DNA of 64,000 nucleotides, from NCBI RefSeq assembly GCF_003334315.1, contig NZ_QOWR01000020.1. One strand, 5' to 3'. Each line of letters opens with the position of its first letter. Position 1 is the first letter of the stretch. The translations under genes were made by a program, and so were the position numbers. The notes beneath the pieces are model-generated. The model saw only the letters and a program-made list of their open reading frames with translations. It was not told the origin of the DNA and searched no databases. Source of the DNA: Escherichia coli (GTDB lineage: Bacteria; Pseudomonadota; Gammaproteobacteria; Enterobacterales; Enterobacteriaceae). Shown here piece after piece: positions 18,587 through 20,238 of the stretch.

Positions 18587-19186
18587 TCATTTATTCAAAC
18601 CTTCAAGCGATTCAGATAGCGCCAGCTTAATCGGTTCAACAGCGAAGGTCAGCCCCTTTTCGCCGTTGTCCGCGACAACATAACGCAGTGCACCTTCTGT
18701 CTCGGTGTAATAACGTTTGTTTTTCCCCGCCGTTAGTAGCGACTGCAGTTTTTTCTGGCTTTGTGTTTTGGTCATTAATGGGGTGAGTGTGCGGATCACT
18801 GCTGCCATGTATTCCTGAGCTTTCGCTTTCGCGGCTTTTTGCTCTGGCCCCTGGATGGGTAGCCAGGTCATTTGAATGCTTTTGATTTTTAAGGTACCGC
18901 GCTCCAGCGCTGTAGAAGCATACAAGTTCTCGTTAATTTTACTTGCAGCACGAGTGAGATTGGCTTTGTCGGGACTGCTGTCGATGGCACGAAATTCGTT
19001 CAGTGGCAGGCTAGGATTCTGGCTGTTAAAGTCTTCTCGAAACTGGCTGATGGAGAGATCGAAAGTAGGGGCTCCAGCCAGCAGATAAGGCGCGGTCGTT
19101 GCCGTATCTGGTGTTTGTGCATGCGCCGTTGTTGTAACGGTTAATGCAGAACATAAGAGAAAAAACAGCGTACACCCTGGCTTCAT
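18587..19186 (-). CDS. yiiQ: DUF1454-family periplasmic protein of unknown function
   Basis: 199 aa MKPGCTLFFLLCSALTVTTTAHAQTPDTATTAPYLLAG... with signal peptide. Confidence 0.9.
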   Translation of the reverse strand: MKPGCTLFFLLCSALTVTTTAHAQTPDTATTAPYLLAGAPTFDLSISQFREDFNSQNPSLPLNEFRAIDSSPDKANLTRAASKINENLYASTALERGTLKIKSIQMTWLPIQGPEQKAAKAKAQEYMAAVIRTLTPLMTKTQSQKKLQSLLTAGKNKRYYTETEGALRYVVADNGEKGLTFAVEPIKLALSESLEGLNK

Positions 19187-19286
19187 TGACAGTACCTTTT
19201 GTTATGACTGGCTCCGATTAAAACGATATCTGTCGCCCTTGTCAAAAGGGTAGAATCCTGGAAAAGACAACCATCAAGGAACTTAC

Positions 19287-19727
19287 ATGACCATACAGCA
19301 ATGGTTATTCTCATTTAAAGGGCGTATTGGACGCCGTGATTTCTGGATTTGGATAGGCCTGTGGTTCGCAGGCATGCTGGTGCTTTTCTCACTGGCGGGT
19401 AAAAATTTACTCGATATTCAGACCGCGGCGTTTTGCCTTGTGTGCTTGCTCTGGCCAACAGCGGCAGTAACCGTTAAGCGCTTGCATGATCGCGGACGTT
19501 CCGGGGCATGGGCATTTCTGATGATTGTGGCGTGGATGCTGCTGGCGGGTAACTGGGCGATTTTACCGGGTGTCTGGCAATGGGCGGTGGGGCGTTTTGT
19601 CCCGACGTTGATTCTGGTGATGATGCTTATCGATCTTGGTGCGTTTGTTGGCACACAAGGCGAAAATAAATATGGTAAAGATACCCAGGATGTGAAGTAT
19701 AAAGCCGACAATAAATCAAGTAATTAA
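19287..19727 (+). CDS. yiiR: DUF805-family inner membrane protein
   Basis: 146 aa MTIQQWLFSFKGRIGRRDFWIWIGLWFAGMLVLFSLAG... Confidence 0.9.
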   Translation: MTIQQWLFSFKGRIGRRDFWIWIGLWFAGMLVLFSLAGKNLLDIQTAAFCLVCLLWPTAAVTVKRLHDRGRSGAWAFLMIVAWMLLAGNWAILPGVWQWAVGRFVPTLILVMMLIDLGAFVGTQGENKYGKDTQDVKYKADNKSSN

Positions 19728-19938
19728 CCTTTAATATATCTCTTACTGCTATTTTTTTCCGGGATTGTTATTTCCACGATGCAAATGACAATGCCCGGAA
19801 AATCCTTCTGAACTCTTCACCTTAAGCAATATCAAAAAAAATGGTAATCCATAAGATCATTACTTGTTTGTTCTTCCCTTAACGGCGCATTATTCTTAAG
19901 TCGTAATCGACAGAGAGGCGAATATACAGAGGTGCCCT

Positions 19939-20238
19939 ATGAAAGATGTCGTAGATAAATGCAGTACTAAAGGATGTGCGATTGATATCGGTACGGTGAT
20001 TGATAACGACAACTGTACCAGTAAGTTTTCGCGCTTTTTTGCCACCCGCGAAGAAGCAGAGTCCTTTATGACCAAACTGAAAGAGCTTGCCGCCGCTGCA
20101 TCCTCTGCAGATGAAGGGGCCAGCGTGGCCTATAAGATTAAGGATCTGGAGGGGCAAGTTGAGCTTGATGCGGCCTTCACCTTCTCATGCCAGGCCGAGA
20201 TGATTATTTTTGAGTTATCACTGCGTTCGTTAGCTTGA
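19939..20238 (+). CDS. yiiS: UPF0381-family protein of unknown function
   Basis: 99 aa [50 protein letters not shown]... Confidence 0.9.

Follow-up and report, generated by a model that had tools for sequence, protein, structure and literature searches.

Genes of the interval

The interval 18587–20238 of the window (the whole 64,000-nucleotide stretch of Escherichia coli DNA analysed) carries three called ORFs, yiiQ, yiiR and yiiS, with tpiA and uspD on its flanks. The yiiQ gene lies on the strand opposite to yiiR, and the two diverge.

17712..18479, minus strand: tpiA, the ORF on the other side of yiiQ
18587..19186, minus strand: yiiQ, 199 aa; predicted exported DUF1454/YiiQ-family protein, with a predicted mature form of 176 aa and pI 9.2
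19187..19286, no strand assigned: divergent yiiQ–yiiR spacer, 100 bp
19287..19727, plus strand: yiiR, 146 aa; predicted DUF805 inner-membrane protein, paralogue of YhaH/YhaI
19939..20238, plus strand: yiiS, 99 aa; acidic (pI 4.55), cytoplasmic DUF406/UPF0381 protein, paralogue of YfcZ; first cistron of yiiS–uspD
20265..20693, plus strand: uspD, 142 aa; class I universal stress protein; second cistron, outside the interval 18587–20238

An earlier note on this DNA had named the three genes between tpiA and uspD, and it agrees in position with the ORF calls and in name with the RefSeq annotation, where yiiQ, yiiR, yiiS and uspD appear under identical names. The RefSeq product name of yiiQ is “YiiQ family protein”, and the current MG1655 RefSeq product names are still of the type “DUF... 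domain-containing protein”. The domain families proposed in the note were recovered in Pfam. YiiQ matched DUF1454 (PF07305) at 2.7e-92, with residues 9–192 on positions 2–189 of the 189-position model; YiiR matched DUF805 (PF05656) at 9.5e-19 over model positions 1–111 of 111; and YiiS matched DUF406 (PF04175; UPF0381) at 1.7e-28. In NCBIfam, yiiS scored 198.5 bits with the equivalog PRK09981 (cut-off 130) and 129.5 with TIGR00743 (cut-off 71.45), and UspD scored 328.2 bits with the equivalog PRK09982 (cut-off 203). NCBIfam held no model for YiiQ or YiiR, and no solved-structure relatives of these two proteins were found by sequence.

The 2.4-kb segment was present in all complete E. coli genomes (5426/5426). 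Compared with two divergent Escherichia loci, the synonymous/non-synonymous codon differences were 35/9 and 49/11 for yiiQ, 30/6 and 42/10 for yiiR, and 5/1 and 17/3 for yiiS. The synonymous excess shows yiiQ, yiiR and yiiS to be genuine coding genes that evolve under purifying selection.

Full-text literature searches found no biochemical function for YiiQ, YiiR or YiiS, just as the earlier note had known of none, and the text of the y-ome paper has no entry for the three genes. PADLOC defence models gave no match for the three proteins at E ≤ 0.1, and PHROGs gave weak matches only (YiiR 3.8e-4 to a generic membrane protein, YiiS 7e-3); a phage or defence reading was rejected on these two results. 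An Rfam scan of 17600–21500 at E ≤ 1 returned one chance-level miRNA match and no known RNA element. The three genes and the stress link of yiiS–uspD are ordinary and already catalogued or published.

Predicted products of yiiQ and yiiR

Two small features belong to the yiiQ side of the interval.

19118..19186, minus strand: yiiQ signal peptide, codons 1–23; predicted Sec cleavage between AHA and Q; no lipobox
18518..18535, minus strand: small G+C-rich hairpin in the yiiQ–tpiA spacer; terminator-like hit

As read from its sequence, the N-terminus of YiiQ is a Sec-type signal peptide, MKPGCTLFFLLCSALTVTTTAHA, followed by Q, and a lipobox is absent. Hydrophobic N-terminal segments occurred in 32 of the 32 aligned homologues. 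F42, Q105, R168, T180, A182 and E184 of YiiQ are invariant. The AF2 model of YiiQ had a pLDDT of 87.5 and a pTM of 0.79, with residues 1–30 at pLDDT 54–61. From the sequence and the model, YiiQ would be a soluble protein of the periplasm, exported by Sec and made of one α+β domain, for which we infer a binding or accessory role there and not an enzymatic one.

The YiiQ family is tiny, with 111 cluster representatives among 1.84 billion proteins and no other families evident; its named hits were all from Enterobacterales. The top AFDB50 matches were likewise all Enterobacterales DUF1454 proteins, and the predicted fold matched solely uncharacterised proteins. DUF2066 proteins resemble YiiQ in structure only, at 14% identity. 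The DUF2066 protein, itself uncharacterised, has 379 aa, twice the length of YiiQ, and belongs to a different Pfam family; homology of the two was not detectable by sequence, and DUF1454 was the sole Pfam match of YiiQ.

Four hydrophobic segments were located in YiiR, at residues 18–39, 44–64, 74–96 and 99–123 (19-residue windows, Kyte–Doolittle ≥ 1.6), and YiiR is predicted to be an integral membrane protein. Both the secretion of YiiQ and the membrane location of YiiR, as put forward in the earlier note, fit these sequence features. YiiR is 35% and 32% identical to YhaH and YhaI of MG1655, respectively. The three proteins have in common an N-terminal F-x-GR..R..W, a central RLHD..RS..WA and a C-terminal G..N..G motif, in which F10, G12, R13, R16, W20, R65-L66-H67-D68, R71, S72, W75, G122, N127 and G130 are invariant. 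All three are annotated merely as putative inner-membrane proteins. YiiR is ~25 residues longer, with a hydrophobic insertion at residues ~87–105 that is absent in YhaH and YhaI, so that its number of membrane spans probably differs from theirs. The yiiR gene, divergent from yiiQ and present only in some lineages, encodes a small, predicted inner-membrane DUF805 protein. The 100-bp spacer between yiiQ and yiiR presumably houses both promoters; a σ70 promoter scan gave no consensus match in this spacer or in that between yiiR and yiiS.

The yiiS–uspD operon and the question of one system

The remaining features lie downstream of yiiR.

19728..20697, plus strand: AT-rich block (spacer, yiiS and uspD); among the loci read, only those of Escherichia have it here
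19755..19802, plus strand: long imperfect inverted repeat (hairpin) in the yiiR–yiiS spacer, supported by its fold and a compensatory change
19810..19836, plus strand: σE-type motif GAACT-N17-TCAAA, lying 102 bp before the start codon of yiiS
20239..20264, plus strand: yiiS–uspD junction, 26 bp, with the uspD ribosome-binding site GAAGGAG at 20252–20258

The same strand, the 26-bp gap and the published co-induction support a single yiiS–uspD transcription unit, and no terminator-like site was found in the gap. As reported in PMC4222967, yiiS–yiiT/uspD is one transcription unit, and YdeO induces yiiS and uspD equally (0.72 and 0.70 log10), with yiiR unaffected; the co-transcription that the earlier note had thought probable is borne out by these data. 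Both genes are listed in the σE regulon and are co-induced in a prc mutant, and yiiS serves as a σE reporter (PMC6941253). Regulation by GadX has been reported, together with an implication of the yiiS knockout in general acid resistance (PMC4918353), and upstream of yiiS there is a ChIP peak of AppY (PMC10057817). The hint of a stress-related role, which the earlier note drew from the yiiS–uspD linkage, has its counterpart in these three papers, and the idea of a yiiS–uspD stress operon is not new. According to this literature, yiiS would be the first cistron of a bicistronic stress operon, turned on by σE (envelope stress) and by three AraC-family regulators of acid resistance, YdeO, GadX and AppY.

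The inverted repeat at 19755–19802 was not reported by the repeat search. Its RNA fold has −24.5 kcal/mol (z −4.58), and two divergent Escherichia loci show a compensatory T-A to C-G change. The AppY ChIP summit at MG1655 position 4112789 (PMC10057817) corresponds to about position 19761 of the window, given an indel-free offset. The repeat is a candidate operator, for YdeO, AppY or GadX of the AraC family, or a candidate RNA structure. We rejected it as a terminator of yiiR, as neither strand has a U tract after it. The sole small ORF of the spacer is a 28-aa antisense ORF starting with TTG. The downstream motif was compared with the σE promoter pattern GGAACTT, spacer of ~16, TCAAA. GAACT-N17-TCAAA occurs once in the 64 kb of the window, against a chance expectation of 0.33, and 31 of 100 shuffles contained at least one match; its −35 element is not conserved in the L002 locus or in E. 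albertii. The main text of Rhodius et al. 2006 does not mention yiiS.

The order fpr–yiiQ–tpiA is conserved across Enterobacterales, and yiiQ shared the strand of fpr and tpiA in all loci examined. Three distant loci (L018–L020; YiiQ 33–55% identical) are collinear in these genes without yiiR, yiiS and uspD, the Citrobacter and Salmonella loci have yiiR and no yiiS–uspD, and the complete set is in place in E. coli, E. albertii and E. fergusonii. The G+C fraction is 0.374 in the yiiR–yiiS spacer, 0.473 in yiiS and 0.436 in uspD, compared with 0.526 for the window. In place of the AT-rich block, Citrobacter and Salmonella have a short REP-like spacer between yiiR and fpr, and the spacers of Escherichia do not align with theirs. 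The restriction of yiiS–uspD to Escherichia at the yiiR–fpr position is based on ~20 loci, out of ~25 read in all.

We consider it highly probable that yiiQ, yiiR and yiiS are independent E. coli core genes, with separate transcription units and separate histories, because yiiQ is on the opposite strand, YdeO spares yiiR and the comparative loci differ. It could be argued that the genes, adjacent in every E. coli genome and with predicted products in three compartments, form with uspD one envelope-stress system, in which YiiQ is a periplasmic sensor, YiiR its membrane component, and YiiS and UspD cytoplasmic effectors. The control of yiiS–uspD by σE, the envelope-stress σ factor (PMC6941253), and the recurrence of the divergent yiiR–yiiQ pair in Citrobacter, Salmonella and the distant lineage L021 agree with such a system. 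It is nevertheless very improbable, since YdeO induces yiiS–uspD and not yiiR (PMC4222967), the Salmonella and Citrobacter loci keep yiiQ and yiiR without yiiS–uspD, L018–L020 keep yiiQ without yiiR, YiiS homologues elsewhere stand beside unrelated genes, and a second DUF406–Usp pair has no YiiQ or YiiR neighbour. A single functional system of yiiQ, yiiR and yiiS was rejected on regulation and synteny. In consequence, the “run of three genes” of the earlier note holds as adjacency and not as a unit, with strands, regulation and comparative loci against the latter, and yiiQ, yiiR and yiiS are to be studied separately.

With yiiQ taken as an independent gene, a functional tie to tpiA has to be weighed, through co-transcription or a need for yiiQ in tpiA expression; yiiQ mutant phenotypes would then be tpiA effects. 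We regard this as very unlikely. In all loci examined, yiiQ directly precedes tpiA and is transcribed in the same direction, and the adjacency held in L016–L021 and L025, down to 33% YiiQ identity; however, glpX–fpr–yiiQ–tpiA–cdh synteny is general in Enterobacterales, and adjacency alone is therefore weak evidence. Mean column identity in the spacer between the two genes is 91% in an alignment of E. coli, E. albertii, Citrobacter and Salmonella, and a predicted tpiA promoter region, employed in complementation work, has its start within yiiQ (PMC4006690), but the spacer also contains a predicted promoter of tpiA's own (PMC4006690) and the conserved hairpin at 18518–18535. This hairpin, in which Salmonella has CTC/GAG for CCC/GGG as a compensatory change, may be the 3′ end of yiiQ or an element of the tpiA leader; the whole spacer folds no better than shuffles (z −0.45). 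The literature on yiiQ consists of mutant-screen hits only, which a tpiA effect would explain, although YiiQ is predicted to be exported and TpiA is a cytoplasmic, glycolytic protein. Because the tpiA promoter region abuts yiiQ, a control of tpiA expression is needed for yiiQ mutants.

The cysteine tail of YiiS and related proteins

YiiS is identical to the chain of PDB 2k3i in 99 of 99 residues. The elements of its AF2 model (strands 27–34, 62–70 and 73–81; helices 37–54 and 85–98) agree with the NMR description. Residues 1–23 had pLDDT below 50, indicating a disordered tail; this tail is nonetheless strongly conserved, and its cysteines do not pack on the core in the model. Cys8 and Cys13 are invariant across the aligned enteric YiiS, YfcZ and Vibrio sequences. 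Cys26 and Cys84 are invariant in the aligned enteric YiiS sequences, and both positions are also cysteine in E. coli YfcZ. In the structure paper (PMC2860719), the samples contained 10 mM DTT with no transition metal added, the Vibrio protein was made without its 16 N-terminal residues, which hold the cysteine motif, and “Cys” occurs nowhere in the text. The structure work did not consider the cysteine tail of YiiS and YfcZ, which is invariant within the family and gives a concrete starting point for assigning a function.

Very tentatively, and with a small chance of being right, we suggest from the sequences that DUF406 proteins (YiiS and YfcZ) may be thiol redox or metal-binding switches, and that DUF406–Usp may be a portable stress module in which YiiS modulates UspD. 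YiiS and UspD would then jointly protect against acid and oxidative stress through the cysteine tail, serving as a thiol/metal switch or as a binding motif. Against the cysteine-switch idea, the tail is unpacked in the AF2 model, the protein of the NMR sample was a folded monomer in the absence of metal (PMC2860719), and the Vibrio clade is without Cys26 and Cys84. As proposed in PMC2860719, YiiS could instead be an enzyme or a small-molecule binder that uses a surface similar to the active site of DCoH (pterin-4a-carbinolamine dehydratase), in which case the cysteines would be incidental. The authors superposed YiiS on DCoH with 2.8 Å over 70 residues and placed their most conserved residue, Glu89, on the equivalent surface. 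Glu89 in their numbering is Glu87 of native YiiS (a two-residue offset), and in our 25-sequence alignment Glu87 is family-invariant together with Phe82, Ala86, Phe91, Leu93 and Arg96, with Glu92 nearly so; Gly18, Cys8 and Cys13 are invariant as well. However, the pterin-binding residues are not conserved and the identity is 11–12%, the fold is a common one, and the paper was unable to arrive at a functional annotation (PMC2860719). YiiS gave no PCD match in Pfam, and the invariant N-terminal cysteine pair is left unexplained by the DCoH-like role, which we hold to be quite unlikely.

The switch proposal has to be set beside the other members of the YfcZ/YiiS family (DUF406, UPF0381, TIGR00743), for which the solved structures 2k3i (YiiS), 2jz5 (VPA0419) and 2khd (VC_A0919) have a β-α-β-β-α core in common. 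YiiS is 44% identical to MG1655 YfcZ (b2343) and 31–38% identical to the Vibrio members, which have CxxCxC where the enteric proteins have Cx4C and do not have Cys26 and Cys84. The pairing of DUF406 with Usp is not general. In Klebsiella, Kluyvera and Edwardsiella, the YiiS homologues are encoded elsewhere, with no Usp neighbour; E. coli yfcZ stands alone beside fadI and fadL, whereas yiiS is paired with uspD; and the Vibrio DUF406 genes adjoin Peripla_BP_2/FecCD/ABC transporter genes and a LuxT-like regulator, again without a Usp. An accessory island (L026) carries a second DUF406–Usp pair downstream of asrABC; the two genes are 29 bp apart, and their products are 63% and 57% identical to YiiS and UspD. 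The recurrence of the pair in a second genomic context makes a better argument for partnership than adjacency in E. coli alone. UspD is matched over its full length by the UspA and UspC models (1.8e-27 and 1.9e-22), yet among the loci examined a DUF406 gene precedes only uspD and its relative in the asr island.

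Gene content and history of the locus

The gene order in the window was sbp-cdh-tpiA-yiiQ-yiiR-yiiS-uspD-fpr-glpX. The earlier note had described yiiQ, yiiR and yiiS as a run of three conserved genes before uspD, and the open reading frames were found where it had put them.

Genes from yiiQ to uspD
18587..19186, minus strand: yiiQ, 199 aa
19287..19727, plus strand: yiiR, 146 aa
19939..20238, plus strand: yiiS, 99 aa
20265..20693, plus strand: uspD, 142 aa

The products of the first three genes belonged to their named families by every test run, in agreement with the note's assignments: YiiQ matched Pfam DUF1454 (2.7e-92), YiiR matched DUF805 (9.5e-19), and YiiS matched DUF406, or UPF0381 (1.7e-28). 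The scores for the NCBIfam YiiS and UspD equivalogs were both well over the cut-offs. In every gene, synonymous codon differences from two divergent Escherichia loci greatly outnumbered non-synonymous ones. The family matches were clear, and yiiQ, yiiR, yiiS and uspD are real genes under purifying selection. A 2.4-kb query across these genes matched all complete E. coli genomes (5426/5426) at 95-100% identity. The strain is not K-12 MG1655, from which it differs by 53 substitutions, without indels, across 3733 bases.

The adjacency of the three genes thus stands; as a functional unit, the run does not hold, because yiiQ lies on the opposite strand and gene content varies between loci. The strand of yiiQ is that of tpiA and fpr, and yiiR diverges from it across a 100-bp spacer. 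The gaps are 211 bp between yiiR and yiiS and 26 bp between yiiS and uspD. We compared a limited sample of loci, on contigs obtained via YiiQ and YiiS homologues. In three distant loci (L018, L019 and L020; YiiQ 33-55% identical), fpr-yiiQ-tpiA was directly collinear, and yiiR, yiiS and uspD were missing. Citrobacter koseri and Salmonella carried fpr-yiiR-yiiQ-tpiA without yiiS-uspD, and the divergent yiiR-yiiQ pair was also present on a short distant contig (L021). Among the loci compared, yiiS-uspD lay between yiiR and fpr only in Escherichia, i.e. in E. coli, a divergent 'E. coli' contig (L002), E. albertii (L003) and E. fergusonii (L025). The block is AT-rich, with a GC content of 0.374 in the yiiR-yiiS spacer, 0.473 in yiiS and 0.436 in uspD, versus 0.526 in the window. 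The yiiR-fpr spacer of Citrobacter and Salmonella is short, contains REP-like sequence, and gave no alignment to the E. coli spacer. The YiiS homologues of Kluyvera, Klebsiella and Edwardsiella (52-63% identical) had unrelated neighbourhoods, with Usp, YiiR and YiiQ absent within 4 kb.

Given the differing presence of yiiR, yiiS and uspD, the AT-rich block, the non-aligning spacers and the unrelated YiiS neighbourhoods, the run is read, from this limited sample, as a mosaic of an old fpr-yiiQ-tpiA backbone, a patchily present yiiR and a yiiS-uspD block apparently gained in the Escherichia lineage.

Several local features were also observed. REP-like sequences (GCCGGATAAGGCG...) occupied 4379-4453 of the Citrobacter contig L017 and 4364-4478 of the Salmonella contig L016, where Escherichia has yiiS-uspD. 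At 4479-4900 of L016, the match to yiiR was split between two frames, one piece covering residues 1-14 and the other 16-141, and no gene was called, which suggests a frameshifted pseudogene. In L019, from a distant enterobacterial genome (GCA_000518745.1), glpX was called as two ORFs of 202 and 121 aa (3085-4058), probably reflecting a frameshift or a sequencing error. In the window, uspD and fpr converge with stop codons merely 4 bp apart (20693-20698). This gap leaves no space for a terminator, so each transcript must terminate within, or run into, the opposite gene.

Regulation of the yiiS-uspD operon

The earlier note had also proposed that yiiS is co-transcribed with uspD and has a stress-related role; both ideas had previously been published. 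YdeO binds upstream of yiiS in ChIP-chip and gel-shift experiments, and yiiS-yiiT/uspD was handled as a single transcription unit, with equal induction of yiiS and uspD (0.72 and 0.70 log10 by RT-qPCR) and yiiR unaffected (PMC4222967). Within the 26-bp junction, we found a GAAGGAG ribosome-binding site but nothing resembling a terminator. The link to stress is equally on record. Both genes are in the sigma-E regulon list of PMC6941253, where yiiS served as the sigma-E reporter, up in the rseA mutant and down on degS deletion; the source given there is Rezuchova et al. 2003. Regulation by GadE/GadX was reported in PMC4918353, where a yiiS knockout implicated the gene in general acid resistance, and PMC10057817 reported an AppY ChIP peak at MG1655 4112789, which we mapped to approximately position 19761 of the window.

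Two elements were located in the yiiR-yiiS spacer:

19755-19802, plus strand: long imperfect inverted repeat, just upstream of the sigma-E-type motif (RNA fold -24.5 kcal/mol, z -4.58)
19810-19836, plus strand: sigma-E-type motif GAACT-N17-TCAAA

The sigma-E-type motif was the single match in the window, yet 31 of 100 shuffles yielded at least one. In L002 and E. albertii, its -35 element GAACT is replaced by CAATG or CATAT; the -10 element and almost the whole leader to the yiiS start codon are kept. It may be that sigma-E controls yiiS in E. coli proper alone, or that the true promoter lies elsewhere.

The inverted repeat coincides with the published AppY summit (PMC10057817) and is similar to the inverted ATTTCA YdeO box of PMC4222967. 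In the two divergent Escherichia loci, one of its T-A pairs is replaced by C-G, a compensatory change. We rejected it as a canonical terminator because it is not followed by a U tract on either strand, and for the same reason read it as a candidate operator or RNA structure.

Properties of YiiQ, YiiR and YiiS

As the note had it, YiiQ is predicted to be secreted: its N-terminus looks like a Sec signal peptide with cleavage after AHA and without a lipobox, leaving a mature protein of 176 aa (pI 9.2). The family is tiny: among 1.84 billion proteins, 111 representatives at 50% identity were found, of which ~30 were full length, and all named members were from several families of Enterobacterales. 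The AF2 model (32 sequences) was confident (pLDDT 87.5, pTM 0.79), with a predicted alpha+beta domain of nine strands and four helices. F42, Q105, R168, T180, A182 and E184 were invariant in 32 aligned homologues. In the literature, YiiQ appears only in screen listings, one from a Tn-seq study of desiccation in Salmonella and one from a screen with trimethoprim. The tpiA promoter region adjoins yiiQ. In an alignment of E. coli, E. albertii, Citrobacter and Salmonella, the spacer (18480-18586) averages 91% column identity. The spacer contains the following element:

18518-18535, minus strand: small G+C-rich hairpin, structurally conserved; in Salmonella, a compensatory change turns CCC/GGG into CTC/GAG

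Because of this arrangement, it is plausible that polar effects on tpiA confound the yiiQ screen hits.

YiiR, described in the note as a membrane protein, has four hydrophobic segments besides its DUF805 match. It shares 35% identity with E. coli YhaH and 32% with YhaI, with motifs common to all three, and differs from both in an extra hydrophobic insertion of ~19 residues. Its only mentions in the literature are among the uncharacterised genes listed by antibiotic screens.

YiiS is identical (99/99 residues) to the Shigella flexneri protein of NMR structure 2k3i, a three-stranded sheet with two helices whose structural matches were common folds only (PMC2860719). The authors proposed a tentative ligand site around Glu89 of their numbering, which is native E87; the analogy drawn was with pterin-4a-carbinolamine dehydratase. 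In family alignments, E87, A86, F82, F91, L93 and R96 were invariant and E92 nearly so. The N-terminal C8 and C13 were invariant in the aligned enteric YiiS, E. coli YfcZ (its paralogue) and Vibrio proteins, the last having a CxxCxC motif. C26 and C84 were invariant in the enteric YiiS aligned, are both cysteines in YfcZ, and are missing together from the Vibrio clade. In the published secondary structure, C26 lies before strand A and C84 after strand C; since these strands pair antiparallel, the two cysteines should be close in space, near E87. The string 'Cys' does not occur in the text of PMC2860719, where 10 mM DTT was used without added transition metal and the Vibrio construct lacked residues 1-16, which hold the cysteine motif. 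AF2 (25 sequences) reproduced the core, with pLDDT <50 for residues 1-23. Because the tail is nearly invariant yet disordered, one might consider, as a rather unlikely explanation, a binding motif, or a thiol/metal site ordering only with the right partner or redox state.

DUF406-Usp pairs and comparison with known systems

The YiiS-UspD pairing is not general to the DUF406 family. No Usp gene lies beside E. coli yfcZ, whose neighbours are fadI and fadL, or beside the DUF406 genes of Vibrio, Klebsiella, Kluyvera and Edwardsiella. The Vibrio context is unlike that of either E. coli paralogue. In V. cholerae and V. campbellii (L028 and L029, 1-3300), we observed a conserved DUF406 neighbourhood with a LuxT-like regulator and a Peripla_BP_2/FecCD/ABC_tran transporter of the kind that takes up iron or haem.

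A second pair was found beside asrABC, the anaerobic sulfite reductase genes. On contig L026 (548-3260), asrB-asrC are followed by a DUF406 gene (63% identical to YiiS) and, after a 29-bp gap, a Usp gene (57% to UspD). Among 5426 complete E. coli genomes, 57 had matches to parts of L026, at ~91-92% identity; among the matches listed, asrABC was covered, and in some the Usp gene as well. In E. coli TUM12357 (L027, 3501-7150), only a degraded remnant of the DUF406 gene is left (6504-6672), whereas the Usp gene is intact, with IS66 genes ~2.3 kb downstream of it. The island is accessory. Edwardsiella also has a yiiS homologue after asrC, but without a Usp gene. That the two genes stay adjacent in another setting, at ~60% identity, is moderate evidence for DUF406 and this Usp type working together.

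Nothing at this locus is new in kind. The genes and the yiiS-uspD operon with its regulators are already on record, as are the YiiS structure and a knockout phenotype. To these, our analysis makes minor additions: the reading of the locus as a mosaic, the DUF406-Usp pair beside asrABC, the YiiS cysteine tail, which had been overlooked, and the conserved inverted repeat where the regulators bind.
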